Of a DNA stretch of 32,000 bases, positions 2,755 through 24,366 are shown one piece after another. The position numbers and the translations under genes are program-made. This DNA comes from Candidatus Scalindua sp. (GTDB taxonomy: Bacteria; Planctomycetota; Brocadiia; Brocadiales; Scalinduaceae), in NCBI GenBank assembly GCA_031316235.1, contig JALDRA010000001.1, positions 540,001-572,000 of the forward strand, read 5' to 3'. Numbering within the stretch: position 1 is the first letter of the stretch; each line of letters opens with the position of its first letter. Under the pieces are notes generated by a model, which was not told the origin of the DNA, ran no database searches, and saw only the letters and a program-made list of their open reading frames with translations.

Positions 2755-2852
2755 AAATCATGCATCTAATGGGGTCTGCCGAGTAGACCAGCGGAACTTC
2801 CCCATTAAGTCCCTCACAGAACCGTACATGAGCTTCTCAGCTCATACGGCTC
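2755..2852 (-). mobile_element. group II intron 3' fragment (domain V plus putative domain VI), no RT ORF attached
   Basis: Minus strand 2852->2819 reads GAGCCGTATGAGCTGAGAAGCTCATGTACGGTTC. This is a 34-nt hairpin matching the group II domain V consensus position for position (compare Ll.LtrB GAGCCGUAUACUCCGAGAGGGGUACGUACGGUUC as I recall it). A further helix follows (TAATGGGG..CCCCATTA). The 3' end coordinate is approximate. Confidence 0.75.
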
Positions 2853-3107
2853 GCAGAAAGACCAGGGTCAAACCTAATCTATTGACAATGAAAGATAAAA
2901 CCAGGAGACAAACCTTATTTCACTTGACCCCCTTTCAGGGACTCGTAAATTCAGGGGTGCCAGGAAAATAGGACATAGCATGGCCCGACCCCAAGCCATT
3001 CCTATATCTCAGATTTTAAAAATAAGGAAAGTAATTTTAAAACAACTTATATATATCACTATCAAAGTTCAAAGAAATGTGACCCCGCTACCTTTTTCTG
3101 AAATCAC

Positions 3108-3136
3108 TTGACATGCATATTACAATAGCATACAAT
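3108..3136 (+). promoter_or_regulatory. sigma70-like promoter of vapBC
   Basis: TTGACA (3108-3113), 17 nt spacer, TACAAT (3131-3136), about 40 nt upstream of the vapB ATG. GCATAT occurs three times (3115, 3141, 3154) and could be operator half-sites. Confidence 0.5.
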
Positions 3137-3176
3137 TACGGCATATCTTATTGGCATATTTATACGGAGACACCAT

Positions 3177-3395
3177 ATGCGAACAACATTAAACATTGAC
3201 GACCTTTTGATGAAAAGGCTACTTGAGGTCACTCATGAGACATCAAAAACCAGGGCCATCACTATTGCCATCGAAGAATTCCTCAAAAAAAAACAAATTA
3301 AAAAAATCCTCTCCTACCAGGGCACATTAGACATAGAAAACAACTGGCAGCAATTAGAGATAGAAGAACTAAAGGAATATGAAGACAAAAAATAA
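3177..3395 (+). CDS. vapB: type II antitoxin, VapB-like (DUF2191/RHH-type)
   Basis: The N-terminus MRTTLNIDDLLMKRLLEVT..SKTRAITIAIEEFL is typical of VapB/DUF2191 antitoxins. GGAGA lies 6 nt upstream of the ATG. The gene overlaps the downstream PIN gene by 17 nt. Confidence 0.8.
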   Translation: MRTTLNIDDLLMKRLLEVTHETSKTRAITIAIEEFLKKKQIKKILSYQGTLDIENNWQQLEIEELKEYEDKK

Positions 3396-3771
3396 GCCAA
3401 AAGTTATTGCAGATACCTGTATCTGGGTCGAATTCTTTCGTACAAAATCAAAAATCTCAAACTGCCTTAGAGACCTAATCTCTAATAACCTTGTATCTGG
3501 TGTTGGGATAATCATTGCTGAACTCCTACAAGGTATTAAGACAAATAAAGAACGTGAAATCATAATAGATATTTTCAATACCATTGAATATCTTGAAATA
3601 ACAAAAGATATCTGGATAGAATCTGGAACGCTTGCCAGAAAACTTCGTTCAATGGGAAAGACAATTCCGCTTTCTGACATTACTATTGCTTGTTGTGCAA
3701 AGAAATATCAGTATAAAATCTTTACCATTGACAAACACTTTCACGCTATCCCTGATATAAAAATTATGTGA
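3379..3771 (+). CDS. vapC: PIN-domain toxin, VapC-like
   Basis: 130 aa with PIN acidic residues in the expected order (IADT.., ..AELL.., ..LSDI.., ..FTIDKHF) and the typical vapBC overlap architecture. Confidence 0.8.
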   Translation: MKTKNKPKVIADTCIWVEFFRTKSKISNCLRDLISNNLVSGVGIIIAELLQGIKTNKEREIIIDIFNTIEYLEITKDIWIESGTLARKLRSMGKTIPLSDITIACCAKKYQYKIFTIDKHFHAIPDIKIM

Positions 3772-3853
3772 ATCATTCTTGAATCGTAAAACTTAAGCTA
3801 CTACCAAACCTTTAATCTTCAATCAGCAAAAGAATTGCATGTGCTTTTCTTTT

Positions 3854-3960
3854 AAGTTGTCAGTTGTCATAAAGGGTACAGTTGTCAGATATCGATTTGA
3901 AACATGCCTTTTTTTTCTGCACCCTGCAAACTGTACCCTGTACCCTTCTTTCCTGCCCCC
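3854..3960 (+). repeat. R3 repeat, copy a (TGTCAG-rich head plus pyrimidine-rich ~35-bp units)
   Basis: aagttgtcagtt..ttgtcag..tttttttctgc.ccctg...actg..ccctgtacccttctttcctgccccc aligns by eye with 4469-4570. A related inverted segment lies at about 258-330. Confidence 0.65.
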
Positions 3961-3968
3961 TTCTATTC

Positions 3969-3996
3969 TTGACATTCAAAGCATAATTTATATAAT
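3969..3996 (+). promoter_or_regulatory. consensus sigma70-like promoter at the end of R3a
   Basis: TTGACA (3969-3974), 16 nt spacer, TATAAT (3991-3996). The predicted transcription start falls at about 4003-4004, on the ATG at 4004. Confidence 0.5.
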
Positions 3997-4003
3997 GAAT
4001 CGC

Positions 4004-4360
4004 ATGCCAATAACCGAAGAATTAAAAAATCTTAAAAAATTTGAATCTGTTGGGTTTACACACGAACAGGCCGAGGCCCTTGCAGAAACCATTGAACAGG
4101 CACAAGCCGCCAGTCAGGAAGACCTTAAGAGTTTTATCCGCACGGAACTCGCAGATCTTGCTAAAAATTTTGATAGTAAATTAAATGCTCTCCAAAAAGA
4201 TTTTGAAGGTAAATTCATAATCCAGCAAAAAGATTTTGATGGTAAATTAAACGGCCTGGAAGCTCGATTAATAGCTTCGCAAAAAGACCTTCTCATTAAG
4301 ATTTTTGGTATTATAGTAGGAACCGTTGGTATAGCAGTTACCATATTAAAACTGTTCTAA
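4004..4360 (+). CDS. DUF1640-like coiled-coil protein with C-terminal TM helix (possibly leaderless mRNA)
   Basis: FESVGFTHEQAEALAETIEQA followed by coiled-coil repeats and a C-terminal hydrophobic helix (IFGIIVGTVGIAVTILKLF) fits the DUF1640 family. Neither the ATG at 4004 nor the one at 3995 has an SD. The longer ORF-track start (3839) lies inside the R3 repeat and upstream of the promoter. Confidence 0.65.
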   Translation: MPITEELKNLKKFESVGFTHEQAEALAETIEQAQAASQEDLKSFIRTELADLAKNFDSKLNALQKDFEGKFIIQQKDFDGKLNGLEARLIASQKDLLIKIFGIIVGTVGIAVTILKLF

Positions 4361-4384
4361 ATCCACTTTCTCCTTTGCACGCTT

Positions 4385-4625
4385 TTTTTATTCTGGATTC
4401 TGGCTCCTGACTCCTGTATTCTTTTTCTTTACCTGCCCCCTGCTAACTGAACCCTGTTCCCTTTTTCAAAGTTGTCAGTTATCAGGTAACATTTGTCAGC
4501 TACGAAATTGAAGATCTTCTTTTTTTCTGCCTCCTGTTTACTGATTCCTGTACCCTTCTTTCCTGCCCCCTGTCCACTGATTCCAGTCCCCTCTCTTCTG
4601 CACCCTTTTACCTTGCCTGCCCTAA
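4385..4625 (+). repeat. R3 repeat array (includes copy b at 4469-4570 plus extra degenerate ~35-bp units)
   Basis: It contains repeated units of the form ttctttcctgccccctg-N-actga-N-cctgt.ccc (for example 4414-4458, 4517-4556, 4557-4595). It lies directly between the DUF1640-like gene and the IS110 element. Confidence 0.6.
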
Positions 4626-4851
4626 TCGGCTTGCCATGTACGATCCGTCTTTATTGTTCTTTTTACCACTAAAAAAGTCGTTATTGGGCTGAAAACGTCC
4701 CTATTTGAAGGCTAAAGTCTATTCTTACTAACATCCATGGCCTACCAGCCACAACGAAGCATGAAACATGCGATTAGGTTCAGATTATGATAAAATCGCT
4801 ATCTCACACTATGTAATAGTCAAGAAGGAATTAATCTGAAAGGAGATAGCA

Positions 4852-6106
4852 ATGTCAAAGTCAAACGATCAAGAAATACTATCAATAGTAAACCCTGTAT
4901 GTTGTGGTTTGGATGTACATAAAGCAAAGATATCTGCATGCCTCATAACGGTAGATAATGAAGGAAAGCAGCAGTATGAGATCATGGAGTATTCAACCTT
5001 TACCGGGAATTGTTAAAGCTTCGCGACTGGTTAGGTGAAAATTCCTGTCCCATAGTGGCAATGGAAAGTACCGGAGTATATTGTGTCGTCCGGTGCACAA
5101 TGTCCTTGAAGGGTACATGGAAGTTATATTGGTAAACGCCAGGCATGTGAAGAATTTACCGGGACGTAAGACAGATATTTCTGATAGTAAGTGGCTAGCA
5201 AGTCTGTTACGTATGGGGCTACTCAAAGGGAGTTATATTCCCGGGAAAGAGCTTCGTCAATGCAGGGAACTGGTAATTCTCAGAAAGAAGTACACGGAGT
5301 CTTTGGGTGATTATAAAAGGCGTGTACATAAGGTGTTTGAAACGGCAAACATAAAGATAGACTCAGTAGTTTCCGATTTGTTTGGTGTAACGGGCAGGAA
5401 TTTGATTGCTCTATTATGTACAAAAGAGAAGATAACCCGCACTGAAGTGGAAGAGTGTGTCAGGGGTAGTCTCAAAGATAAAGTAGCGGAGCTTTATCAG
5501 AGTATTCAGGGTTTTTTTGAGTCTCATCATCGTTTTGAGATTACGCTGCTTATGAAGACGGTTGGACATCTTGAGTCAACGATAATGGAAATATCCCAAC
5601 AGCTTGATGATATGACCAGATGTCACAAAGAGTTACTGGACCATCTTGATGAGATACCGGGAATAAACAAAAGTGGAGCCCAATCGATTATCAGCTTTGT
5701 AGGAACCACTATGAAAGAATTCAAGAGCGATTCCCATTTGGTTTCCTGGGGAGGACTGTGTCCGGGGAATAATGAAAGTGCTGGTAAGAGGAAAAGCGGT
5801 AGAAGTCCAGTGGTAAAAAACCCGTTTAAGACGCATATGATCGAGCTTTCCTGGGCAGCTATCAAGAAAAAAGGCTCGTATTATAAGGATAAGTATTATC
5901 GTCTTAAAGCCAGGCGTGGTGCAAAGAAGGCTATTGTTGCAATAGCCAATAGAATAACACGGGCAATATACCACATCATAAAATATGGTGTATCGTATGT
6001 CGAATTAGGGGAGAATTACCTTTCAGCGAGGAATAAAACAACGAGTTTGAGTTGTTTACAAAAACAGGCGAAGTTACATGGATTCGAGTTAATAACACAA
6101 AAGTAA
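4852..6106 (+). pseudogene. IS110-family transposase (DEDD-type), disrupted by two frameshifts
   Basis: The ATG at 4852 (AGGAGA 4841-4846) opens MSKSNDQEILSIVNPVCCGLDVHKAKI..TFTG and then hits a stop at 5014. The next frame continues ELLKLRDWLGENSCPIVAMESTGVY. The ORF-track frame (5081-6106) continues RPVHNVLEG..LVNARHVKNLPGRKTD..SKWLA. The inferred lesions are a 1-nt loss in the G-run near 5005-5007 and a 2-nt gain in tgtgt near 5078-5082. Confidence 0.8.
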
Positions 6107-6381
6107 TGATACGAGAGAAATATCTCTGAAGCAAGAGGATGCGAGTAATCTCAAATTCTATGAGCCACCAATAAGAGTTTGTTTCACCTGCCCGACTATG
6201 GCTTTCAGGCGGGGAGGAAGGAATATTTTACAAAGAAAAGGAAATTCCTATTCTTTTTTAAGTGGAATAGGTAGATAGGATCGCTATTGACTCGCAGTAA
6301 TATTTGTTTCATATAAGTTTTATATGAAACAGCCCCTTTAGCTTCTAAATCATACCCGTCATTAGAACGATGACAGAGCAC

Positions 6382-7609
6382 TAGTGTCACGTCAATCATC
6401 AAGTGTCGGGTAAAGTTTAGATAATCTTATCCTGGCATCAATCGTAGTAAACTGCCAGTTAGCCTTTGATTTCTTATTGTTTCTAAATTTCTGCCATGAC
6501 TGTACTTCTTTTTTTATCTTTGTAATATTATCAATCCGCCTGTTTAAACACTGTCCAGCAAGTACATTCAACTCGATTTCTGCCATATTTAACCAGCTAC
6601 CATGCTTTGGGGTGTAGACAAACTCAAATTTATCTAAAATTTCCTTTGCTTTATCCGGCACAAACGTTTCATACAACGATCCAGCATCATGAGTATTCAA
6701 GTTGTCCATTACTAATGTTATTTTGTTCGCATGACCATATGTATTAACAACGTCTTCCAGAAAATAGGACCAATCTTGTTTAGTTCTTCTTTCTGTTATT
6801 TTTACTATACGTTTCCCGGCCAATGGTTCAAAGGCCAGAAAAATATTACACACTCCACAACGCTTATATTCATAGTCATACTTAGCCGGTTGCCCTGGTG
6901 AAGCAGAAATTGGCATCTTTGTCTCTGATATAAGTTGCTTTGGTGACTCGTCCATACATATTACTGGATACTTAGCGTCATATGGACGTTTGTATACATC
7001 CAGCACCATTTCCATGTTAGCGACAAAACTGCCGTTTTCTTTTGGCGGTATTACCCAACCTTTTCGTTGCCAGGGCTTAATTTCGTTTTTTTTTTTTAAT
7101 ATACGGCGTATTGTTTCGTGGGAAATTTTGTCAGTATATTCAAGTTCTACTACCTTGTCTGCTAATAATCGCAGAGACCATCTTGCAAAACCTTCTGGCG
7201 GCTCGCTACAACTTAACGCTACCAGGTGGGCTTCAAAGTCACCATCTGTCTTCTTTTCATATACTCGATTGCCTTTGCGTCCATTAAGCGCAACTTCAAA
7301 ACCTTCTTCAACAAATCTTTTCTTTACCCGGTCAATTTTCTTCATGCTTATTTTAAGAACACGGGCAATTTCAACGTTGGTCGAACGTTTGCCCTGATAC
7401 TCACCCTGGTCGCAAGCTAATAATAGTAATGCATTGAGTATCTTTTGGGATCTATGCATCCCTTTAGACGTTAAAGCAACAAGCCTGTTACGTTCATCGC
7501 AATCAAGAGTTACTATGTATTTCTTCATAATCTAAATCTCCCGAAAAAATTTAATTATGAAGATATTATAATCTATTATATACGACATTACAAGCTTGAC
7601 GTGACACTA
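6382..7609 (-). mobile_element. IS630-family insertion sequence, apparently intact
   Basis: Perfect 12-bp terminal inverted repeats gtgtcacgtcaa (6384-6395) and ttgacgtgacac (7596-7607). Each is flanked by TA (6382-83, 7608-09) within c-TA-g, which is the CTAG target with TA duplication typical of IS630. Confidence 0.9.
6392..7528 (-). CDS. IS630-family DDE transposase (378 aa)
   Basis: Full-length ORF with an N-terminal HTH region, DDE-type motifs (..ICMDESP.., ..LVMDNLNTH.., ..NMAEIELN..) and an ATG start. Confidence 0.9.
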   Translation of the reverse strand: MKKYIVTLDCDERNRLVALTSKGMHRSQKILNALLLLACDQGEYQGKRSTNVEIARVLKISMKKIDRVKKRFVEEGFEVALNGRKGNRVYEKKTDGDFEAHLVALSCSEPPEGFARWSLRLLADKVVELEYTDKISHETIRRILKKKNEIKPWQRKGWVIPPKENGSFVANMEMVLDVYKRPYDAKYPVICMDESPKQLISETKMPISASPGQPAKYDYEYKRCGVCNIFLAFEPLAGKRIVKITERRTKQDWSYFLEDVVNTYGHANKITLVMDNLNTHDAGSLYETFVPDKAKEILDKFEFVYTPKHGSWLNMAEIELNVLAGQCLNRRIDNITKIKKEVQSWQKFRNNKKSKANWQFTTIDARIRLSKLYPTLDD

Positions 7610-7622
7610 GCATGAAATTATG

Positions 7623-9629
7623 TTAACTAAAAATGGCGTCACAAGCCATATCATCCGACCAACCTGACCAACTACTACCTCTCCAAGTGTTGTGCCACAA
7701 ACGTTTATCATATCCTACTGCAAACAAGTCAATACTGTTTGTACGTTTAGACACAGCTGCAGGTCCAGATAGAAATTTTCCGATACCATTATCTGTATCC
7801 GCTGACCACCCTGACCACTTAAAACCGTCAAAGAAACTGTGATACATTTTATGATCTTCACCCAAAGCAAAAACATCTATACGTCCAGCTACCCATGAAA
7901 CGGCCGCAGGAGCTGAAACAAAGGTACCTTCGCCTGGACCAGTCGACCATGAAGACCATATATTTTCTTCCAAACTTGCGTGATAAATTTTACGGTCATC
8001 TCCAAGCGCAAAAACATGTAATCGATCTTTATCCCAAAACGTAGCTGCTGGTGTGGAAATAAATTCACCATCCGAAATATTAGATTCAAGCATTGACCAT
8101 TCTGATCCATTCCATTGGAGATAACGCATATGTCTCGTTAACAAATCAACATAGAATACTTTCAATCTGTTCTCTGCAGTTGCAACGGTGGCAGGACCGT
8201 ACATTGAGTAGTTATCTCCAAGGTGTTCCCAATCTGTCCATTCAGAATTTTCCCACGTACATTGCCAAATGCGATTATCATCTCCTAGAGCGAATACATC
8301 TAATCGATCGTTATTCCAAGATGAAGTTGCCGCCCCTGAAGAAAACGTCGCATGGCTACCCCGAGGCGTCCAGCCAATAAAACTATTATTACTGATCCAT
8401 GTCTGATACATTCTACGATCCATACCTCGCATAAAAACATCTATGCGTTCAATACTTGCTTCATGTCCAGGTAGTCCTAAGGCTAACGGCCTCTTCCAAG
8501 CTACTGCACCAACATTTGGAGGAACCATCAAATTTGTCAGTGGCTTTTCACCAAAAACCTCCCAATCATAAAGAAGCTTGTAACGGCCACCATCAGCTTG
8601 GTCTCCCTGCCATGCTAGGTACTTGTTTTTGGTATTTGTAACACCATTCCAAGTAGAGTAAGGGGTTGGAAGTTGTAATTCGACTACTTTCGCGTCAAAA
8701 ATTTCATCTTTATTTTGACCGAGAAACCAGTCTTGAATTAACGTGATGAGGGCACCAACTATAGCCCCCACAATCGCCCCAATAGCTGCTCCTAGCAACG
8801 TTCCAAGGCCTGGAAACGTATTGCCGATAGATCCTCCTATGGTTGCACCCAGAATAGTCGCAGTTACCCATGTAGCTATTTTTTCCTCTATAAGTGGTTT
8901 TATTTCTTCCAATAATTTTACAACGAATTCGGAGAATCCCACATCGTCATGTTCTGCCAGTACTACTATAACAGCAAAACTACGAGGCCAATATAGAGGA
9001 TCTCTAGACCCATTGAGGGTTACAATGTCTGGGAAATTAAAAGATTTTAAATTTTTTGGTGGACTATAGATTTTGTTCTCACCAGCATCAAAATCATCAC
9101 TTACAGTGAAGATGTTAATTTTCTTAGCAATACCAACCGAGTCTATAGAAATACCACTCATTTGAATATGGTCGGCACCTATTTCGTCGGTTTCCTCAAT
9201 GCACTCGACTCTATGTACCCTAAAGCGGATACCTTCGAAACCAGTAGTTTGTTCAGGAAGTAGTGCCATTTTTGGTAAAGGTAATTGGTCTAACGAAATA
9301 TCTCTAGACTCTGAAAGAGCTCTAGCTTGTTCTGTAACAGATAAATCCGAGCGTAAATTTACACCAGCTAACCGACCATATTTAGATTCGCGCATCTGCG
9401 GTGTTATATTTCTAAGCGTATTAACCATCGACTGTTGTTTAGAAGTAGGTAGTTGAATCAAGCGTTTATAAAATATTTCTTCTAGTGTGTTATTCGAGCT
9501 GGACATTGGATGTGAATTAGGTTGATCAAAATGCTGTATGGCTTTATCTGCAGACAAATTCACAGTATTCACCACATAATCAGTAATTTCCTTTAACAAT
9601 CGATCATCTAAACCATTTATATGCGACAT
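7623..9629 (-). CDS. 668-aa protein: unknown N-domain, glycine-zipper hydrophobic hairpin, 6-blade PLL/AAL-type (lectin-like) beta-propeller
   Basis: GAAGGAG RBS and an ATG start; no signal peptide. Residues ~252-298 read WVTATILGATIGGSIGNTFPGLGTLLGAAIGAIVGAIVGALITLI. Residues ~385-668 carry six repeats of R[IL]DVF[AV]xG.D..[IMLY][WY]H..W....WS.W..(L)G..F.S.PAAVSW. Confidence 0.85.
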   Translation of the reverse strand: MSHINGLDDRLLKEITDYVVNTVNLSADKAIQHFDQPNSHPMSSSNNTLEEIFYKRLIQLPTSKQQSMVNTLRNITPQMRESKYGRLAGVNLRSDLSVTEQARALSESRDISLDQLPLPKMALLPEQTTGFEGIRFRVHRVECIEETDEIGADHIQMSGISIDSVGIAKKINIFTVSDDFDAGENKIYSPPKNLKSFNFPDIVTLNGSRDPLYWPRSFAVIVVLAEHDDVGFSEFVVKLLEEIKPLIEEKIATWVTATILGATIGGSIGNTFPGLGTLLGAAIGAIVGAIVGALITLIQDWFLGQNKDEIFDAKVVELQLPTPYSTWNGVTNTKNKYLAWQGDQADGGRYKLLYDWEVFGEKPLTNLMVPPNVGAVAWKRPLALGLPGHEASIERIDVFMRGMDRRMYQTWISNNSFIGWTPRGSHATFSSGAATSSWNNDRLDVFALGDDNRIWQCTWENSEWTDWEHLGDNYSMYGPATVATAENRLKVFYVDLLTRHMRYLQWNGSEWSMLESNISDGEFISTPAATFWDKDRLHVFALGDDRKIYHASLEENIWSSWSTGPGEGTFVSAPAAVSWVAGRIDVFALGEDHKMYHSFFDGFKWSGWSADTDNGIGKFLSGPAAVSKRTNSIDLFAVGYDKRLWHNTWRGSSWSGWSDDMACDAIFS

Positions 9630-10051
9630 CAGCTTACTCCTTCTCGTTTTTTAGGAACTATCTCATAGAATTTCTTGAATTTATTGGGATTATATTCCCC
9701 GTTACTTGTGGCGTTTAAAATGTATTGCTATGAAATATTTGATTTCGGACAATTTGTATTAATGCCTCCCCTCATCTGTTTGCGATGGGGATGTTTATTG
9801 TAAGATTCGACGAGTGCTCCTATTCTTTTTTGTGTAGCCGAATGAGTCAGGACCGATCCCAGTCGATCATTTGAATTGTTGATTCGCTCATACCATTCAC
9901 AGCCAAAAATGGCTTTTTAAGCACAATTAAAATAATCTCCCTAATATTTATTCGTGAATTAACTTATCATACTGTACCCCCTATGTCAATATGAAAACTG
10001 GAGTGTGCGGCCGAGCAAGATCGATAATTCCAGTAGGTGAAAGATCCGAAT

Positions 10052-10341
10052 AAAGGGGTCCATTCTACATAACAGAAATAAAGTATGCTCGCTCCATGAC
10101 ACGTCCACTAAGAATAGAATATCCAGGTGTGTGGTATCACGCAATGAACAGAAGATTAAATCAGTACTCCATATTTTTGCGTAATTCTGATTATGAACTT
10201 TTTATACTCATTTCATAATCGTTTTCGGATAAAATCCGAGTAAAAGCGGAGCGAGTAAAGTCCTCGGCACTTTTTGTCCGGGGATACCTTCACCAAGATT
10301 TGGTTTCCGGTAATACCGAAAACCAAATCGGTTTTAGTATA
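10052..10341 (+). repeat. ~290-bp long direct repeat, copy 1 (RAYT 5' fragment plus R1 copy b at 10203-10341)
   Basis: Near-identical by eye to 12382-12681, with a few substitutions and two 5-nt indels near the start. Homology stops exactly at the R1 3' end (agtata). Confidence 0.85.
10096..10218 (+). pseudogene. RAYT / IS200-like Y1 transposase gene, 5' fragment (40 codons)
   Basis: It translates to MTRPLRIEYPGVWYHAMNRRLNQYSIFLRNSDYELF, matching the N-terminus of REP-associated tyrosine transposases (..RPLRIE.PG..YH...RG......IF.DD.DR..F). It then runs into R1 and stops. Confidence 0.7.
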
Positions 10342-10489
10342 GAATGAGGTTCAAGAGAGAACAACCGCTACGCCTGCTCTCAACACAACCTCTTCTCTAT
10401 GGAAGATTAATTTTAGAATAAGTGGAGATTTCAACGTAATAATCAATTTACCACTTTTTTTATCTTTGTTTAATAAATTGTAACTATCA

Positions 10490-11888
10490 CTACAGCGACA
10501 CTTTTTTTCTCAGCTTCCGCTGCAATTTTTTGAATTCCTTTATTTTTGTTTTTCTATGAGAACGATAAGCACTATAATTCCTTTTCTGGTGGTACCTGAT
10601 AAGTTCAATTACGTATTTTTTATCAAGTGGAATAACCGGCAGAACGGCCTCCAACAGCATACGAGCTTGGGGTAAAGTCAGAGCCGGTGTTTTTTTTTAA
10701 TACTCCGCGTATTCTAAGCAAAAATAATTGTGCCAAAAAAACAAACGTCATATGCCTATGCCAGGCGGGCCAGGAACGATGTTCATAATCTGCCATGCCT
10801 AATTCGCTTTTGCCTTCTTGAAATGATTGCTCGACAGGCCAGCGTAATACACATACACGTATCATTTCTTCAAGTGCCGTCTCTGCCGGAGCATTGCTGA
10901 GGCAGTACTTTATTTCATGTGTTTTAGGATCTTTTCTTAAAAACAGCCATCTTTCATTCTCCGCTGTACTGTCATCGCCTGCAAACACCCTGGTTCGAGC
11001 GACAAATCCATAAATTGGCCCTTTTGCTCCTTCAGCAAGTTGGGCCAGCTTCCACTTTACATTTCCGTCCTGTGCTATATCGGATACTTTTCTTTCAACT
11101 CTCTTCCGGCAAGCTTCACCATCTTGCGTGCTCACTAACACTTTCCGATTCTTTGCTATATCAGCTAGATAAAAAACCTGTGGAGGAAGATTTTCTAAAA
11201 AATCAGGGCTATTGCCAAATATACTATCACACGTTATCCAACGAAATGGGAACAGCCCACCCGTACTCAATTCAGCAATCATCTCAACGGCAAGTTCCGG
11301 TTTCTTCCTGAATACCAAATTTTTAGGCACTTTGCATCTTTCACGTCTCTCTTTATACTCAGGGTCAAACCACTTTTCAGGCATATACAGCCGGCGGTCT
11401 ATCAATCCATACCCCTTCGTACTCGTATATGCCACGTACACTCCAGACTGACAATTTTCTATTTTACCAAGACGGCCACAATATTGACGAGCGACTCCCA
11501 CCGATTCCTTTCCTTTTTTCACCACTTCTCTACTATCAAGACTGAGTACTCCATCAGCTTCGGACAATAGTTTTGAGAGTTCCTCTTTGTGCCGTGAAGC
11601 GATAAATTCTCCATCCCACTTGTACTCTCCCATGAACCGTTGCAAGCTTCGTACTGTATCTTTACCTCGGAGTCGAAGTGCTATTGGCTCTATCGATTTA
11701 CGATCAAGCTTACTTAATAAACCCTGCAAATAGCACAAGCTCAAATCTTTCTGCTCTTTCCGTCTGAATCCCTCCTCAAACAATGCGTGATACTTCTCCA
11801 ACTCTGTTGCAAGCTTTCCGATATCGCTTGCACTCAATTCAACTCCGGGTTCTACTTCAGGACTCCAGTCCGGGGGACGTACTATCAT
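10490..11888 (-). pseudogene. IS701-family (IS4-like DDE) transposase with a +1 frame break in an A9 run
   Basis: Signature QYCGRLGKIENCQSGVYVAY plus YLQGLL and HRSWPAWHRH. The likely start is the ATG at 11888 (AAGGAG 7 nt upstream); the ORF-track TTG at 12074 has no RBS. After the A9 run (plus T9 at 10690-10698) the open frame ends at 10623. The +1 frame continues TPALTLPQARMLLEAVLPVIPLDKKYVIELIRYHQKRNYSAYRSHRK.. to a stop at 10490, which is a typical family C-terminus. Confidence 0.8.
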
Positions 11889-12137
11889 ACTGCTTCTCCT
11901 TTCCAATGGCAGATTGCTGTAAGGTCTGTTTGAAAGGAGATACTTTCGGGTAAGTAATGGTTCTGTTTTGTCTTGTTTTATATTTCGCCTGCCTTGGGTG
12001 TCTAATACATAGGTAAAAGTAAAGGGGTCAAATCTGCCGATGGCTTTGCTGTAACTATTTTTTTGTTTCGTCAACTTGTTTTTTTAGTTTTTTGTTACTA
12101 TCCAGACGAAACTTCATTCTATCAATTTGCTAATTTA

Positions 12138-13692: not shown

Positions 13693-13839
13693 AAAGAGTC
13701 TTACAATGAAGGCGTAGCGAGTCGCATTGGCCCCGAGTCATGCCTCAACGACCCGCGAGGGAGTGGGGAAGCATTGACAGGGGGAAACGCAGGCGGGCTA
13801 TTGAGCTCCGAAAACACCTCATTCCGGAATCCGAGCTAG
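13693..13839 (+). other. fragment of the 'GPESC' pseudo-ORF region that I associate with group II introns
   Basis: It translates to KESYNEGVASRIGPESCLNDPRGSGEALTGGNAGGLLSSENTSFRNPS*. From memory, the pattern S.EG.A.H.GPESC......GEALTG..AG..LS.E is common in unannotated ORFs just upstream of group II intron RT genes. It has no start codon and is truncated. Confidence 0.4.
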
Positions 13840-16363: not shown

Positions 16364-16437
16364 TGGGCCCACTAGGACTCGAACCTAGGACACACGGATT
16401 ATGAGTCCGTTGCTCTAACCAACTGAGCTATGGGCCC
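16364..16437 (-). tRNA. tRNA with CAU anticodon (elongator Met or lysidine-modified Ile2; not resolved)
   Basis: The minus strand reads GGGCCCATAGCTCAGTTGGTTAGAGCAACGGACTCATAATCCGTGTGTCCTAGGTTCGAGTCCTAGTGGGCCCA. It shows a 7-bp acceptor stem, D-arm AGCTCAGTTGGTTAGAGC, anticodon loop CTCATAA and T-arm GGTTCGAGTCC. No CCA is encoded. The anticodon stem lacks the three G-C pairs of initiator tRNA. Confidence 0.9.
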
Positions 16438-16781: not shown

Positions 16782-17462
16782 CTATTTCAAAATATCTTCC
16801 GCTGTTTTATTTATCATCTCTATTCCCTGTTTATCAATATCCGCAAACACTATTGCTGTGCTGAAGCTGGGATGGTTCGCGTTTCTGCGTATGCGGACTA
16901 CTTTCCCGGTACAGTTGATCGTCTGCATTGACCGGGAAATATTCAGCTTGAATTCGAGAATGGAGCCGATTCCTAAATTTTTGTTATAATTGAAATTCAC
17001 ACCCATGGCACTCAAATCATTAATGGCAACCATGTCCCAGCCAGAGAGTATCATCGTATAGCCTTCACATTGGTTAATGCGAAATCGTATCATAAAGGAT
17101 TTTACGATTCTCTGATATCTTCTTTTTTCCGCACCATCAAATGTCTGTATTGTATCTGGTACATACTTTTTATACGTTTCAGGTTTGAGCAGCTTTTCCT
17201 GAGTCCGAGATGCAACCTTTGGAAGCTGGTATAAAATAAAGGTAAACAGTTCTTTAAAATTCTGTACTGCAAAGAATGGAAACTCTGGATCCCTGATCTC
17301 ATTGAGTATCCTCCTGCACTCTATCAGGGTAGTATCAGCATCAATGTTACCGTCTCTGTATCGTTTTAAGTTTTCAACTAACCCTGATATATACGTCAGG
17401 TATTGTTCCCGATTAAATGAAGAGTTTTCTCCCGGTTTCGGCCAAACTCTGTTGCTTATCAT
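16782..17462 (-). CDS. PilZ-domain protein (c-di-GMP receptor type) with an unknown N-domain
   Basis: The C-terminal ~110 aa carries RRYQRI (RxxxR) and NDLSAMG (D/NxSxxG), the two PilZ signature motifs. The preferred start is the ATG at 17462 (AAGGAG 10 nt upstream) rather than the ORF-track start at 17510. Confidence 0.75.
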   Translation of the reverse strand: MISNRVWPKPGENSSFNREQYLTYISGLVENLKRYRDGNIDADTTLIECRRILNEIRDPEFPFFAVQNFKELFTFILYQLPKVASRTQEKLLKPETYKKYVPDTIQTFDGAEKRRYQRIVKSFMIRFRINQCEGYTMILSGWDMVAINDLSAMGVNFNYNKNLGIGSILEFKLNISRSMQTINCTGKVVRIRRNANHPSFSTAIVFADIDKQGIEMINKTAEDILK

Positions 17463-17520
17463 TATGATTAAGCTCCTTTCAAACGAGTCAGTGCCTCCTG
17501 CACAACTCATTCAAAATGGC

Positions 17521-20073: not shown

Positions 20074-20102
20074 TTGACATACCATTTATAGAGAAATAGA
20101 AT
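20074..20102 (+). promoter_or_regulatory. sigma70-like promoter upstream of the gltD-like/metF pair
   Basis: TTGACA (20074-20079), 17 nt spacer, TAGAAT (20097-20102). It would give a ~375-nt leader. Confidence 0.4.
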
Positions 20103-20482
20103 GGGAGGTTTTAGCGAATAGTTACTTTAGCCGTTCGTCTTGACTTATACAGGTTTGTCTCAGAGCGTTAATTTCCGGCAGAAAAGAGCCTTATCTTTTA
20201 TGCTCTGCGGCTTCTTTACCTTAGTAGTGCAATAGGCATTACATTTAAACTATAAGTAAACCAATGGACTGCATTTTTATTGTGCAGCAGTCCGACAGCC
20301 TGAACACTGCCAGGCCTCTTCATTCAGGCGGAGAGTCATTCGGACCGCTATTTTAAGAGTATATAGTGCCAAGCCCCCCGTCCGGAAGGGTACGGGCAGG
20401 TGAGGATTGTTCTGGCGGGCAGGATACTTCAACGTGAATGATCAGAAGTGTTGCTCTCGATCAGACAGAAGGAAACCAAAAA

Positions 20483-22582
20483 ATGGCAAGGATTTTTGAA
20501 GGTAAAACAAAAAAAAGACTGGAAACCGACGAAGAAGCTCCATGCATAGTTGCCTGTCCGATACGCCAGGATGCAAGGGACTATATTCAGCTCATTGCAA
20601 GAGAACAATTTAGCAAAGCCATGCAGGTAGTAGCCGAAAGAAATGCGCTTCCATCAGCATGCGGTAGAATCTGTACACATCCATGTGAGACCGAATGCCG
20701 AAGAAATATTCTTGACAAACCCATTGCAATTGCATGGCTTAAGCGTTTTCTCGCAGATGGTAATTTCTCAGATAAAGCCGTTTCCTCTCCTGAAGATGAG
20801 GATAAAACTACAGGACCAGTCAAAATTAACTATCCTGAAAAGATTGCCATTATCGGTTCAGGTCCCGCAGGGTTGGCAGCAGCAAATGATTTATCACTCC
20901 TTGGTTACAGATGCACTGTTTTCGAGGCATTTTCTGAACCCGGAGGAATGCTTCGCCTCGGTGTCCCTACTTACCGTCTACCAAGAAATTTTCTTGATAA
21001 AGACATTGATCTCATCAAAAGACTGGGAGTGGAAATAAGATTTAATACTACGTTCGGAAAAGATATTACGTTTGAGGGATTAAAGAGTGATGGCTACGAT
21101 GTTACGTTTCTGGCTGTAGGGCTGCCGATTACAAGGAGACTGCCGATTGAAGGTGTCGATTCAGATGGGGTCCTGAAGGGGATCACATTTCTCGAAAGTG
21201 AAAACTGCAATGGCAATGCTCGAGTAGGAAAAAAGGTAGTGGTCATTGGCGGCGGAGCTGTTGCGATGGATTGTGCAAGGACCGCCCTCAGGCTGGGACC
21301 GGATGAGGTTCATATCGTGTGCCTAGAGTCAAGGAGCGAAATGCCGACAACTGATTACGAGATTGAAGAGACACTTCATGAGGGGGCAATACTTCATCCA
21401 TCACTGGGGCCGAAGAGAATTCTTGAGACAGATGGGAGAGTGGCCGGCCTTGAAACACTGAAGGTCAGATCCATTTTTGATAACCAGGGAAGATTTAATC
21501 CGTCATTTTACGAAAACAGCGAATCTGTGATAGAGGCGGACACCATTATCCTGGCTATTGGACAATCGTCTGATTTGTCTTTTCTCAAAGATCATAAACT
21601 GATAGGGATTACCAGAGGCGGAACAATATCGGCTGATCCTGAAACCTTACATACCGGTATGCCCGGTGTCTTTGCCGGCGGTGATATAGTGCTGGGAAGA
21701 GGCACCCTTACAATGGGTCTCGGTCACGGTAAGAAGGCGGCTCTGTCTATCCATAATTATCTGAGAAAAACCACCTTAACCGACTATAAGTTCCGGGATA
21801 TAAAACCTCTTGGGGAACTTGCAGAGAAAAGGGTGGATACGATAAAAAAAGAGGCAAGGTGTGAGATGCCTACCCTGCCGCCCAGGACGAGAATCACCCA
21901 TTCTGAAGAGGTTGAGCTGGGTTTTTCCGAGGAGATGGCAGTACGTGAAGCAATGCGTTGCATGAACTGCGGTAATGGTGCAACCGTCTCGGAAGAGGTA
22001 TGTATTGCATGTTTGACCTGTGTCAGGGTGTGCCCTTTTGAGATTCCCAGGATAGAAAAAGATGAAAATTCTGCCTATATTGATGGAGACTGTCAATCAT
22101 GCGGAATCTGTGTTATTGAATGCCCTGCCAGGGCAATTGAGTTTAAGGGTACGTATGAAGACATGGGAAACTCACAGCTTGATGAAGTCTTTAAAGAAGC
22201 TGCTGGTACCGGTTCGATAATCGTAAACTTCTATTGCGGTTGTAACGTAAACCTCTTTGGAGATAAACTTCCTCAAAACATCAAGCACGTAAACATCCTT
22301 GGATTAGGGAAATTAAGCCCTTCACTTATCCTTAAGGCCTTTGAGAAAGGCGCAGATGCAGCACTGGTCACATCCTGCGATGACTCCTGTCATTTCGGTG
22401 ACCACTGTAACAGCTGGGCTGAGAAACGGGTAGAAATTGCACAAGGATTTCTCTCATCGATCGGTTTAGAGAAAGAAAGAATAAAGAGTATGAAACTCTC
22501 TTCCCATAATAGAGAGGAGTATTTACAGACAATAAATCAAATGATTGAAGATATTCGAAATGGATACCCAAAACAACAATAA
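20483..22582 (+). CDS. GltD/NfnB-like NAD(P)H flavin oxidoreductase fused to a 2x[4Fe-4S] ferredoxin domain and an MvhD/FlpD-like domain
   Basis: The N-terminal Cys-rich region (CIVACP..ACGRICTHPCETECRR) is followed by IAIIGSGPAGLAAANDL..EPGGMLRLGVPTYRLP and VVVIGGGAVAMDCA, which is the GltD small-subunit pattern. Next come CIACLTCVRVCP and CQSCGICVIECP (two CxxCxxCxxxCP motifs). The C-terminal ..FYCGCN..ILKAFEKGADAALVTSCDDSCHFGDH..EKRVEIAQGFLSSIGLEKERI matches MvhD/FlpD. The ATG at 20483 is preferred (GAAGGA upstream); the ORF is open from 20438. Confidence 0.8.
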   Translation: MARIFEGKTKKRLETDEEAPCIVACPIRQDARDYIQLIAREQFSKAMQVVAERNALPSACGRICTHPCETECRRNILDKPIAIAWLKRFLADGNFSDKAVSSPEDEDKTTGPVKINYPEKIAIIGSGPAGLAAANDLSLLGYRCTVFEAFSEPGGMLRLGVPTYRLPRNFLDKDIDLIKRLGVEIRFNTTFGKDITFEGLKSDGYDVTFLAVGLPITRRLPIEGVDSDGVLKGITFLESENCNGNARVGKKVVVIGGGAVAMDCARTALRLGPDEVHIVCLESRSEMPTTDYEIEETLHEGAILHPSLGPKRILETDGRVAGLETLKVRSIFDNQGRFNPSFYENSESVIEADTIILAIGQSSDLSFLKDHKLIGITRGGTISADPETLHTGMPGVFAGGDIVLGRGTLTMGLGHGKKAALSIHNYLRKTTLTDYKFRDIKPLGELAEKRVDTIKKEARCEMPTLPPRTRITHSEEVELGFSEEMAVREAMRCMNCGNGATVSEEVCIACLTCVRVCPFEIPRIEKDENSAYIDGDCQSCGICVIECPARAIEFKGTYEDMGNSQLDEVFKEAAGTGSIIVNFYCGCNVNLFGDKLPQNIKHVNILGLGKLSPSLILKAFEKGADAALVTSCDDSCHFGDHCNSWAEKRVEIAQGFLSSIGLEKERIKSMKLSSHNREEYLQTINQMIEDIRNGYPKQQ

Positions 22583-23501
22583 TTTCAAGTCGGGAAGCAA
22601 CCTGGAAAAATTGCTCAGGAGAGGTGAGTTTGTCGTTACAGCAGAACTGGGTCCACCGAGAGGTGCGAGCCGCGAAGCGGTTGAGGAGAAAGCGAAAATC
22701 TTAAAGGGCTTTGCTGACGCCTATAACTTGACGGATTGCCAGACCGCAATGGTTCGGCTTTCCAGTATCGCAAGTGGAGCTATGCTTCTTAACATGGGAA
22801 TGGAACCGATCATACAGATGACGTGCAGAGACAGAAATAGAATAGCGATGCAGAGTGATATTCTTGGAGCAGCAGCCTTAGGTATGAAGAATATCCTCTG
22901 TTTAACAGGAGACCATCAGTGCTTTGGTGATCATCCCGAAGCAAAGGGTGTCTTTGACCTCGATTCAGTCCAACAGCTTAACATGTTCAGGCAGATGAGA
23001 GATGAAAGTACATTTCAGTCGGGAGGAGAGATGAAAGTTGCACCAAGACTGTTCCTTGGCTCTGCAGCCAACCCTTTTGCTGATCCCTTCCGGTTCAGAG
23101 CTCCCAGGCTTTCCAAGAAAATAAAGGCTGGGGCAGATTTTATCCAGACACAGATAATATATAATATGAAAAAATTTGAAGAGTGGATGGGACAGGTACG
23201 CGATATGGGACTCCATGAAAAAGTCTCTATCCTGGCAGGAATCACCCCTATCAAATCACTGGGAATGGCCAGGTATATGAAAAATAATGTTCCAGGATTA
23301 GATGTGCCGGATGAGATCATAAAGCGTTTAGAGGGAGCAAAAGACAAGAAAGCCGAAGGCATAACTATCTGCCTTGAAACGATTGAACAGGTACGGAGGA
23401 TTGAAGGGGTTGCCGGTGTCCATCTCATGGCAATTGAATGGGAAGAGACAATACCCGAGATTGTAGAGAGAGCAGGATTACTCCCGAGGCCAACTCCATG
23501 A
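22560..23501 (+). CDS. metF: methylenetetrahydrofolate reductase, acetogen/anaerobe-type MetF
   Basis: VVTAELGPPRG..NLTDCQTAMVRLSSIA..EPIIQMTCRDRNRIAMQSDILGAAALGMKNILCLTGDH..GDHPEAKGVFDLDSVQQL is the MTHFR (PF02219-type) pattern seen in Moorella-type MetF. The ATG at 22560 overlaps the upstream gene by 23 nt; the TTG at 22545 is an alternative. Confidence 0.85.
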   Translation: MDTQNNNNFKSGSNLEKLLRRGEFVVTAELGPPRGASREAVEEKAKILKGFADAYNLTDCQTAMVRLSSIASGAMLLNMGMEPIIQMTCRDRNRIAMQSDILGAAALGMKNILCLTGDHQCFGDHPEAKGVFDLDSVQQLNMFRQMRDESTFQSGGEMKVAPRLFLGSAANPFADPFRFRAPRLSKKIKAGADFIQTQIIYNMKKFEEWMGQVRDMGLHEKVSILAGITPIKSLGMARYMKNNVPGLDVPDEIIKRLEGAKDKKAEGITICLETIEQVRRIEGVAGVHLMAIEWEETIPEIVERAGLLPRPTP

Positions 23502-23502
23502 G

Positions 23503-24366
23503 TTAAAAGAGAGAAATCAGTATAATTCCCAGAATCATTGTAACACTCCCCAGGAACCTTTCCCTGATATTTCTCTCCTTAAAAAACAGTGCCCCGTACA
23601 TAACTCCGAAGAGGAGACTCAGACGTTTTACCGAAATCATATAAGAGACCTCTACAAGGCTGATGGCCTTTAAATGGGTCATCATCATGATCGCCATGCA
23701 TATCCCGATACAGAGAAAAAGCAAAGGCTGAGAAGCAACCCGGGATACAATACGCTCTGTTTTGAACTGTATAACCAAAAACAGGGAAATCGAAAGCAGG
23801 AATGAATAGAAGACCGTAAAAAATGCCGGGTTTGAGTGCTGGACAGCGACCTTGCCCAGGTTTGATGTGATGCTGAATAAAAATGCAACGATGATCATTA
23901 AGAGTGACCCTCTCTCTCTTCCAATTGCCCTGATCGGTCCTAAAATTCCCTGATGCACCGCATGAATGTTAAGCAGATAGGCGCCGGCTGCAACGAGAAT
24001 AATCCCGACAACCCCGGTTTTGTCCGGCAGCTCTCCCAGAATGCTATAGGATGTACCAATAAGAAAGACGGGAGTCAGGGAGAGAAATGGCAAGGTTAAC
24101 GACAGGGGTGAAATACGTATTGCCTTCAGGTAAAGAAGCAGTGCAATAATGTCCAGGGGAAGAAGTAAAAAGGTTGTAAGATAAAAGAGTAGGTCAAGTT
24201 CCGGTATCTCGACAAAGGGAATGAGAACGATCGTAAAAGGAGCCGCAAATCCAAATCTCACCCACGCCATAAAGTAGGTATCATTATTTTTAAGGGCCTT
24301 CTTGGTGAGGGCATCTGCTGTTCCAATACTTAAAGCACAGATAAAGGCGTATGCAAACCAATTCAT
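23503..24366 (-). CDS. EamA/DMT-family transporter (10 predicted TM helices)
   Basis: 287 aa and hydrophobic throughout, with the two-fold repeat typical of EamA domains. ATG start. It is convergent with metF, with the two stop codons 1 nt apart. Confidence 0.75.
   Translation of the reverse strand: MNWFAYAFICALSIGTADALTKKALKNNDTYFMAWVRFGFAAPFTIVLIPFVEIPELDLLFYLTTFLLLPLDIIALLLYLKAIRISPLSLTLPFLSLTPVFLIGTSYSILGELPDKTGVVGIILVAAGAYLLNIHAVHQGILGPIRAIGRERGSLLMIIVAFLFSITSNLGKVAVQHSNPAFFTVFYSFLLSISLFLVIQFKTERIVSRVASQPLLFLCIGICMAIMMMTHLKAISLVEVSYMISVKRLSLLFGVMYGALFFKERNIRERFLGSVTMILGIILISLF

Follow-up and report, generated by a model that had tools for sequence, protein, structure and literature searches.

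In Candidatus Scalindua, a marine anammox planctomycete of the order Brocadiales, the gene for the catalytic subunit of methylene-tetrahydrofolate reductase (MTHFR), metF, is preceded by a gene coding for a long fusion protein in which a flavoprotein of the NfnB/GltD kind, a ferredoxin domain with two predicted [4Fe-4S] clusters and an MvhD-like domain follow each other in a single chain. Both genes are located in the 32,000-nucleotide stretch of DNA analyzed here (the window), positions 540,001 to 572,000 of contig JALDRA010000001.1 (assembly GCA_031316235.1). We propose that the fusion, MetV and MetF constitute a three-component MTHFR in which the fusion is the electron input and the electrons follow a linear, non-bifurcating wire, a reading to which we assign a probability of roughly 0.55. 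Judged by the sequences, this MetF very probably receives its electrons from the fusion.

Anammox bacteria use the Wood-Ljungdahl pathway to fix CO2 (PMC12213060). The MetF of anaerobes lacks a site for pyridine nucleotides, and MetVF alone (the type II enzyme) cannot use NAD(P)H, an ability conferred on it by input modules such as RnfC2 (PMC8760232). The fusion would supply what MetVF lacks, because it combines a dinucleotide-oxidizing flavin with one-electron carriers that end in the MvhD-like domain. In the enzyme that we envisage, reduced pyridine nucleotide (most likely NADH) would reduce the flavin adenine dinucleotide (FAD) of the NfnB/GltD-like domain, from where single electrons would be transferred through the N-terminal [4Fe-4S] cluster(s) and the 2x[4Fe-4S] ferredoxin domain to the MvhD-like [2Fe-2S] cluster. 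From there they would pass via the MetV Fe-S clusters to the flavin of MetF, which would reduce methylene-tetrahydrofolate (methylene-THF) to methyl-THF in the service of Wood-Ljungdahl CO2 fixation. The donor, the succession of clusters and the association of the three proteins are all predicted from sequence. The proposal builds on the architecture of the fusion, its cofactor motifs, a gene order that recurs across phyla and an intact metV found in the same genome. The features of the two genes in the window are:

20483..22582 (+), fusion gene, 699 aa: NfnB/GltD-like Fe-S flavoprotein, 2x[4Fe-4S] and MvhD-like domain
20531..20767 (+), Fer4_20 N-terminal Fe-S domain, residues 17-95 (E 2.8e-19)
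20840..21691 (+), FAD- and NAD(P)H-binding domains (Pyr_redox_2), residues 120-403 (E 1.9e-26)
21320..21334 (+), CLESR, residues 280-284, after beta-2 of the second Rossmann fold
21956..22141 (+), RC493xxC496 followed by the 2x[4Fe-4S] ferredoxin domain, with CxxCxxCxxxCP twice; resembles the HdrA C-terminal ferredoxin domain
22235..22558 (+), MvhD/FlpD-like domain with a putative [2Fe-2S] cluster (PF02662 match at residues 595-692)
22560..22582 (+), 23-nt overlap of the 3' end of the fusion gene with the start of metF
22560..23501 (+), metF, 313 aa, anaerobe (MetVF-type) MTHFR catalytic subunit

Domain architecture and cofactor motifs of the fusion

An earlier sequence-only reading of the window had described a 700-residue open reading frame (ORF) with a GltD-type N-terminal Fe-S region, two dinucleotide-binding motifs, two CxxCxxCxxxCP motifs and a C-terminal MvhD/FlpD-like domain. 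The ORF is indeed intact (though of 699 residues) and every one of these blocks was recovered by Pfam above the cut-offs, the Fer4_20, Pyr_redox, Fer4 and FlpD profiles all being significant. The protein is 100% identical to MDR4503604.1, from a metagenome-assembled genome (MAG) of Candidatus Scalindua sp. An in-frame ATG at 20438 is an alternative start that would add 15 residues (714 aa); the sequence GAAGGA lies 8 nt upstream of the ATG at 20483, and the NCBI annotation of the identical protein likewise has 699 aa. The Pyr_redox_2 region contains two Rossmann motifs, GSGPAG in the first (NAD_binding_8, residues 123-157) and GGGAVAMD in the second (Pyr_redox, 251-300). The Fer4 dicluster covers residues 500-553 (Fer4_9, 3.3e-7) and its motifs, C507/510/513/517 and C537/540/543/547, are invariant across 80 homologues, while the FlpD/MvhD domain (PF02662) is recognized at E 1.4e-19 and 70.7 bits against a cut-off of 22.3. 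Pfam detected neither an RnfC nor a Complex1_51K domain in the fusion. The best NCBIfam model for the whole protein, PRK12771 ('NAD(P)-binding protein'), scores 470 bits, under its cut-off of 516, and its last 200 residues or so resemble the end of HdrA2 (9.3e-32), the match to NF040770 (residues 499-693) covering only the C-terminal ferredoxin part of HdrA and MvhD.

Comparison with solved structures places the fusion close to a well-defined group of enzymes. Over residues 17-430 or beyond, the best matches in the PDB are NfnABC (9bov_A, 7e-96; 9n5u_A, 4e-92), StnC (8oh5_C, 6e-85) and NfnB (4ylf_B, 8e-77; 5jca_L, 2e-73), followed by the weaker relatives GltD (3e-48) and dihydropyrimidine dehydrogenase (DPD, 8e-42). 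The C terminus matches the solved MvhD chains 9sw2_D and 5odc_D at ~1e-11 to 1e-12. A confident model of the fusion was built with AlphaFold2 from the alignment of 80 homologues (pLDDT 85, pTM 0.84; the single-sequence model had a pLDDT of 34). When this predicted structure was searched with Foldseek, NfnABC, StnC and NfnB ranked first, with ~600 aligned columns to NfnABC and StnC, ~700 to DPD and a TM-score (target-normalized) of 0.79-0.81 to the NfnB chains. By its fold, the fusion is a member of the NfnB/GltD superfamily.

The N-terminal Fe-S domain departs from the pattern of these relatives. Rather than the full set of eight ligands for two [4Fe-4S] clusters, it has six invariant Cys among the 80 homologues (C21, C25, C60, C64, C68 and C72). 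The GltD/NfnB motif CxxCxxxxCxxxCP has lost its two leading Cys, only C21-x3-C25-P remaining, and Glu17/Glu18 of the fusion stand at the position of Cys100 of StnC. StnC is likewise incomplete, keeping 5/8 of its N-terminal ligands (PMC7483475). The RC493xxC496 motif ahead of the ferredoxin domain is invariant throughout the family, and it is a conjecture of ours that the distal N-terminal cluster obtains its missing ligands from C493 and C496.

The second departure concerns the pyridine nucleotide. After beta-2 of the second Rossmann fold the alignment shows CLES in the fusion where 9bov_A, 9n5u_A, 5jca_L, 8oh5_C and 4ylf_B all read YRR(T/S), with Glu282 replacing an Arg of the YRR motif that marks NADPH specificity. 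YRRS is kept in basal Brocadiales and some non-anammox members; since CLE is found here, both types of motif exist within the family. As a rule, an acidic residue in such Rossmann folds goes with NAD and a basic pair with NADP. NADH is favored because CLE stands where NADPH-binding relatives have YRR, and the donor is probably NADH rather than NADPH.

A way to look at the history of the MvhD-like domain is to follow its individual Cys through the different lineages. The sequence-only reading had noticed GLGK at the position of the CSGR-type motif and suggested that cluster ligation may differ. Alignment to the solved MvhD proteins confirms the altered motif: the position of 'MCSGR' reads LGLGK, with Gly607 for the canonical Cys, and the three other canonical positions are kept (C585, C632 and C636). 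Non-anammox relatives and basal Brocadiales have Cys at all four positions (FxC, xCxxK/R, GC and xxCH), and the second of the four was lost in both Brocadiaceae and Scalinduaceae. In Brocadia and Kuenenia a new Cys appears three residues after the fourth-position Cys (CHFC), and in Scalindua and Anammoxibacter six residues after C636 (CHFGDxC), which in the window protein is the apparently compensating Cys642, a residue shared by Scalinduaceae. Loss and downstream gain, taken together, look like a ligand swap that keeps four Cys, in a non-canonical set, for putative cluster binding. This swap is unrelated to the relocation of metV described below, because Brocadiaceae that have metV in the operon share it. 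The window protein also reads FYC-G-C at residues 585-587 (22235-22243), with an extra Cys587 where nearly all 80 homologues have Tyr. This is a second lineage-specific change beside a putative cluster ligand.

As to the second gene, its product (MDR4503605.1) matches PF02219 at 1e-40 and reaches just 75 bits with the Escherichia coli-type model TIGR00676, against a cut-off of 293.7; its best NCBIfam match is the MTHFR half of PRK08645 (226 bits). By these profile scores it is a MetF of the anaerobe (MetVF) type and not an E. coli-type equivalog. No solved MetV or MetVF structure was detected by sequence, MetF matching canonical MTHFRs only (~1e-13).

Gene order with metV and metF

The genomes were scanned with a single fusion protein as query, so that nearly all the loci recovered (numbered with an L) are from Scalinduaceae, and the wider context comes from distant matches and from a scan of metagenomes. 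The pairing of the two genes proved to be conserved: metF is directly 3' of the fusion in 19 of the 19 Scalinduaceae loci that have sufficient flank. The overlap of the last 23 nt of the fusion with the metF start, from which translational coupling had been read, is confirmed by the coordinates (the fusion ends with a TAA at 22580-22582, and metF begins with the ATG at 22560, with a purine-rich GAAGA 8 nt upstream of the latter). Such overlaps, of 8-29 nt, and with them any translational coupling, are however restricted to the subclade of the window (window, L001, L002 and L018); the remaining Scalinduaceae have spacers of 40-870 nt between fusion and metF, some still containing a 99-aa ORF.

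The other families of anammox bacteria reveal a third gene. The fusion is conserved in every anammox family sampled, and outside Scalinduaceae metV is adjacent to metF in all the Brocadiales families sampled. The order is fusion, metV (PF12225), metF in Brocadiaceae bacterium B188 (L026/L027) and in Hypogeohydataceae (L028/L029), and fusion, 99-aa ORF, metV, metF in Ca. Subterrananammoxibius (L021). No metV was detected by tblastn in the 14-kb flanks of ~20 Scalinduaceae loci. A search with a MetV profile located an intact stand-alone metV (P0242; MDR4504425.1 / MEZ6155436.1) on the window's own 4,149,782-bp contig, ~820 genes from the fusion (accessions 821 and 833 numbers later). In the closest relative, metV (P0156) is ~675 kb from the fusion on one 2.93-Mb contig. 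Both genes share the same context: phosphofructokinase (PFK), metallo-beta-lactamase, metV, flavodiiron protein and 2-oxoacid:ferredoxin oxidoreductase. Among the stand-alone MetV proteins of Scalindua, which share 88-90% identity, every one of the 12 Cys that are invariant in the family is conserved. In Scalinduaceae metV has therefore been relocated out of the operon, not lost. We would expect the relocated gene to be still required. More generally, this is a caution for inferences based on operons, where a missing gene, as metV here, may have been relocated and not lost.

Two small genes recur near the fusion or metV. An ORF of 99-100 aa is located between the fusion and metV/metF in several loci (L021:8074-8373, L003:8083-8385, L004, L005, L007, L009 and L022); it is 72-78% identical between lineages, has no Pfam match and is present neither in the window nor in the Brocadiaceae locus. 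Its product could be a small accessory subunit or an assembly factor of the reductase. The gene yjbQ (PF01894) is directly 5' of the fusion in Brocadiaceae (L026:5536-5949) and Subterrananammoxibius (L021:5375-5863), and in the Scalinduaceae locus L030 (5684-6148, 8001-8690) it appears instead at ~1.9 kb from metV in its new setting. The arrangement suggests either that the fusion and metF moved and left metV close to the ancestral site, or that the operon was split by an inversion.

Outside anammox bacteria the module is far from rare. An exhaustive search of representatives retrieved many full-length relatives of 670-705 aa with 35-47% identity, and the named homologues come from MAGs, with no isolates among them, of Actinomycetota (Ca. 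Aquicultor), Bacillota, Chloroflexota, Nitrospirota, Poribacteria and Planctomycetota, under generic names such as 'FAD-dependent oxidoreductase' or 'gltD'. The order with metV and metF is conserved in at least five phyla and inside Wood-Ljungdahl clusters, including those of uncultured Actinomycetota, Bacillota and Chloroflexota; Nitrospirota and Poribacteria have homologues of the same architecture. In the non-anammox MAGs L033, L035, L036, L116 and L097 the fusion-metV-metF triad is located between acsB/acsC/acsD genes and acsE. Thus, L035 reads carbon monoxide dehydrogenase (CODH), acetyl-CoA synthase (ACS), CdhD, fusion, metV, metF, 2Fe-2S protein, AcsE and NuoF-like protein; L036 (a MAG labelled as Bacillota) reads CODH, ACS, AcsC, fusion, metV, metF, CooC and AcsE; and L033 reads CdhD, fusion and metV. 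L034 has no metF nearby. The 2Fe-2S protein of L035 (8608-9105) is a NuoE-like thioredoxin-like protein and the NuoF-like one (9900-11693) a Complex1_51K protein; together they may provide this operon with a further NADH module.

A profile of the ferredoxin plus MvhD C terminus, run against metagenome contigs, gave a further view with 80 loci, 71 of them with at least 900 nt downstream in which metV and metF could be tallied by tblastn. In 49 of these 71, metV starts within 600 nt 3' of the MvhD region and is mostly followed by metF. The Scalindua-type order, with metF directly 3', was found in 5, metVF elsewhere in the locus in 4, and neither metV nor metF in 13. In one lineage the fusion stands between the gene for pyruvate phosphate dikinase (PPDK) and dnaG-rpoD (L078:5642-7705, L050:5642-7735, L043, L049, L051, L060, L065 and L093), with no metVF within 3-7 kb. 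There, metVF may be encoded at a distance, like metV in Scalindua; alternatively, the fusion may be a paralogue that serves another acceptor.

Two loci are informative about the way the module is assembled. L076 encodes an HdrL-like HdrA/GltD protein of 1,488 aa (2786-7252) and a separate MvhD of 167 aa (7262-7765), then metV and metF, and L087 a Moorella-type double HdrA (3640-6642), then mvhD, metV and metF. The ferredoxin plus MvhD unit is the constant adaptor at MetV, whereas the preceding flavoprotein can be exchanged, because the unit precedes metV with GltD-like, HdrL-like or HdrA flavoproteins alike. At least three interchangeable flavoprotein modules thus serve MetVF, all of them plugged into MetV by this one common adaptor.

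Comparison with known systems and alternative readings

Four types of MTHFR have been described: MetF, MetVF, RnfC2-MetVF and HdrCBA-MvhD-MetVF (PMC8760232). Type III is the RnfC2 NADH module of Acetobacterium woodii (Bertsch et al. 2015, via PMC8760232) and type IV the MetVF-HdrCBA-MvhD enzyme found in Moorella thermoacetica and in Sporomusa ovata (Mock et al. 2014, via PMC8760232, PMC7483475). The fusion module is none of the four, and the combination of an NfnB-like flavoprotein, a ferredoxin and MvhD in one chain is a candidate for a fifth MTHFR input module. We found no description of it in the literature searched, the coverage of which was incomplete, with subscription journals under-represented, so that a prior description is possible; a paper on Wood-Ljungdahl Actinobacteria has 'gltD' among the gene abbreviations of a gene-cluster figure, without comment (PMC7325909). 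The module is widespread yet hidden under generic annotation names, and this in a pathway by which anammox bacteria fix all their carbon. To our knowledge, the anammox genome papers give this step simply as 'metF'.

The best functional analogue is the type III enzyme, where likewise one extra Fe-S flavoprotein encoded beside metVF oxidizes the pyridine nucleotide. The likeness is functional only: the input of type III is RnfC/NuoF-like, with flavin mononucleotide (FMN) and an N-terminal MetV-like domain, whereas here it is NfnB/GltD-like, with FAD, and joined to ferredoxin and MvhD; the two are non-homologous and the fusion system has no RnfC/NuoF-like NADH-binding subunit. With type IV the fusion shares an HdrA-type C-terminal 2x[4Fe-4S] domain followed by an MvhD-type [2Fe-2S] domain directly 5' of metV. 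It has, however, neither HdrA with its thioredoxin-reductase-like flavoprotein nor HdrB and HdrC (CCG domains), and is one chain of 699 aa. HdrL, a protein that the sequence-only reading had brought into the comparison, combines in Desulfobacterium autotrophicum HRM2 a GltD-like NAD(P)H part with Hdr-type Fe-S domains and has an MvhD partner (PMC2702500). The GltD-like part and MvhD are indeed common to both, but HdrL has 1,300-1,500 aa, HdrA-type FAD domains and a separate MvhD (PMC2702500), and in the fusion the HdrA part is missing and MvhD is fused. We rejected the identification of the fusion as an HdrL, since by Pfam it has no HdrA-type domains, unlike the true HdrL-like protein of L076.

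By sequence and fold, residues 17-550 are best matched by NfnB and the large subunits of StnABC and NfnABC, and StnC and NfnABC also have the dicluster domain that follows. These enzymes have NfnA or StnAB as partners, the ones we propose for the fusion being MetV and MetF; the C terminus of StnC and NfnABC is NuoG/formate dehydrogenase-like and not MvhD; they have YRR and the fusion CLE; and bifurcation is known for the relatives only. DPD (1h7w) and GltD-GltB provide a parallel in layout, with an N-terminal Fe-S domain, an FAD/NAD(P)H module and further [4Fe-4S] clusters that feed a substrate-reducing flavin. In DPD this second flavin sits in a TIM barrel. DPD is a single chain, whereas here MetF and the Fe-S/zinc protein MetV are separate and an MvhD [2Fe-2S] would be inserted in the wire.

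Several observations weigh against the linear three-component enzyme. The electron path through the N-terminal domain is uncertain with six of the usual eight ligands, the assignment of NADH follows a motif rule, and the nearest solved relatives are all bifurcating enzymes. Scalinduaceae are reported to have hdrABC and mvhD genes elsewhere (PMC9325076), whose products could be alternative partners. Finally, about one quarter of the full-length family members are located away from metVF, so the module is not exclusively tied to MetVF in cis, and the loci with neither metV nor metF belong mainly to the PPDK-fusion-dnaG-rpoD lineage.

A different functioning of the same complex of fusion, MetV and MetF has to be considered in the light of those relatives. 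In it the NfnB-like FAD would bifurcate, sending one electron downhill through the MvhD [2Fe-2S], MetV and MetF to methylene-THF and the other uphill through [4Fe-4S] clusters to ferredoxin, or would confurcate, reduced ferredoxin and NAD(P)H jointly driving the reduction. We regard this as possible but unlikely. Its appeal comes from the scores, which are 1e-96 to 1e-73 for the bifurcating NfnABC, StnC and NfnB against 1e-48 for GltD and 1e-42 for DPD, from the two separable Fe-S branches of the fusion (N-terminal clusters versus C-terminal ferredoxin and MvhD) and from the role of MvhD, which feeds or leaves the bifurcating flavin in Hdr complexes (PMC9012536). A bifurcating MTHFR has moreover long been postulated for Wood-Ljungdahl organisms, but none has been demonstrated so far, and the Moorella complex does not reduce ferredoxin (PMC8760232). 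GltD and DPD have the same fold and do not bifurcate, so that the fold alone is indecisive, and the two ligands missing in the fusion belong to the distal N-terminal cluster, the one that faces ferredoxin in NfnB. Reduction of ferredoxin by NADH coupled to that of methylene-THF is also thermodynamically marginal by our own estimate from standard potentials, and in anammox bacteria hydrazine is a donor of very low potential, with which extra reduced ferredoxin may be unneeded. If the enzyme did bifurcate, the triad would be the minimal, three-protein form of the long-sought electron-bifurcating methylene-THF reductase, and the pathway's most exergonic step would provide anammox bacteria, and with them many uncultured Wood-Ljungdahl lineages, with reductant of low potential. 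Being small, self-contained and related to NfnB, the module is an unusually tractable system for asking if MTHFR can bifurcate.

The remaining alternatives change the partners of the fusion. It might be a general NAD(P)H:ferredoxin or acceptor oxidoreductase (SudA-, SfrB- or FdhB-like) with a partner other than MTHFR, its position beside metF being historical; homologues do carry names such as formate dehydrogenase beta subunit, NADPH-Fe(3+) oxidoreductase subunit beta or ferredoxin-NADP reductase, and some members of the family lie beside unrelated housekeeping genes. These database names are automatic, however, and an order with metV and metF that recurs in at least five phyla and within Wood-Ljungdahl clusters is hard to square with chance, which makes this reading improbable. 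Slightly more doubtful still is the enzyme put forward by the sequence-only reading, a two-gene MTHFR in which the fusion donates directly to MetF and MetV is dispensable in Scalinduaceae. All Scalinduaceae loci have an operon without metV, the 8-29-nt gene overlap in the subclade of the window suggests tight co-translation, and the MvhD ligand set is altered in the crown anammox lineages. Nevertheless, metV is retained here and in other Scalinduaceae with every invariant Cys, and Brocadiaceae share the MvhD swap yet keep metV in the operon, so that the swap is no adaptation to the loss of MetV. Neither the fusion nor MetF of Scalindua has gained a MetV-like (PF12225) segment as judged by Pfam, and MetF alone is not competent in the published enzymes (PMC8760232). 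With metV standing between fusion and metF in every non-Scalinduaceae relative examined and intact, though unlinked, in this genome, the enzyme without MetV is not supported. The fusion is still very likely the input partner. The linear three-component MTHFR hence remains the reading that we prefer.

Surroundings of the operon in the window

The fusion, MetF and the product of the gene that comes next are identical to the consecutive proteins MDR4503604-606 of the 4,149,782-bp contig. Two further features flank the operon in the window:

20074..20102 (+), candidate operon promoter, TTGACA-17 nt-TAGAAT, 11/12 matches, ~380 nt 5' of the fusion start
23503..24366 (-), EamA/DMT transporter gene, convergent; downstream boundary of the operon, outside the system

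The promoter candidate is weakly supported, with 5 promoter-like sites observed in the region against 8.0 expected from shuffled sequences. A glycosyltransferase-like gene ends at 19318, 1.1 kb 5' of the fusion, and in the 1.1-kb spacer Rfam at gathering thresholds detected no THF, S-adenosylmethionine (SAM) or other riboswitch or regulatory RNA. The convergent EamA transporter, which the sequence-only reading had seen as the next gene, has its Pfam match and is syntenic in most Scalinduaceae loci. Also as noted there, no metV, hdrABC or rnfC-like gene is adjacent: metV was undetected by tblastn with three MetV queries across the 32 kb, and no hdrABC- or rnfC-like product was found among the window ORFs run through Pfam, both flanking genes included.

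Mobile DNA abounds in the upstream half of the window, with transposase genes of the IS110, IS630/DDE_3 and DDE_5 types and two pieces of group II intron RNA (RF00029, 62 bits; RF02005, 92 bits). These features are located at 2778-2854 (-), 5081-6106 (+), 6392-7528 (-), 10623-12074 (-) and 13695-13839 (+), which fits a region prone to rearrangement. Closer to the operon, a tRNA gene (16364-16437, minus strand; Rfam, 74.6 bits) adjoins a gene (16782-17510, minus strand) for a 242-aa protein with a C-terminal PilZ domain.

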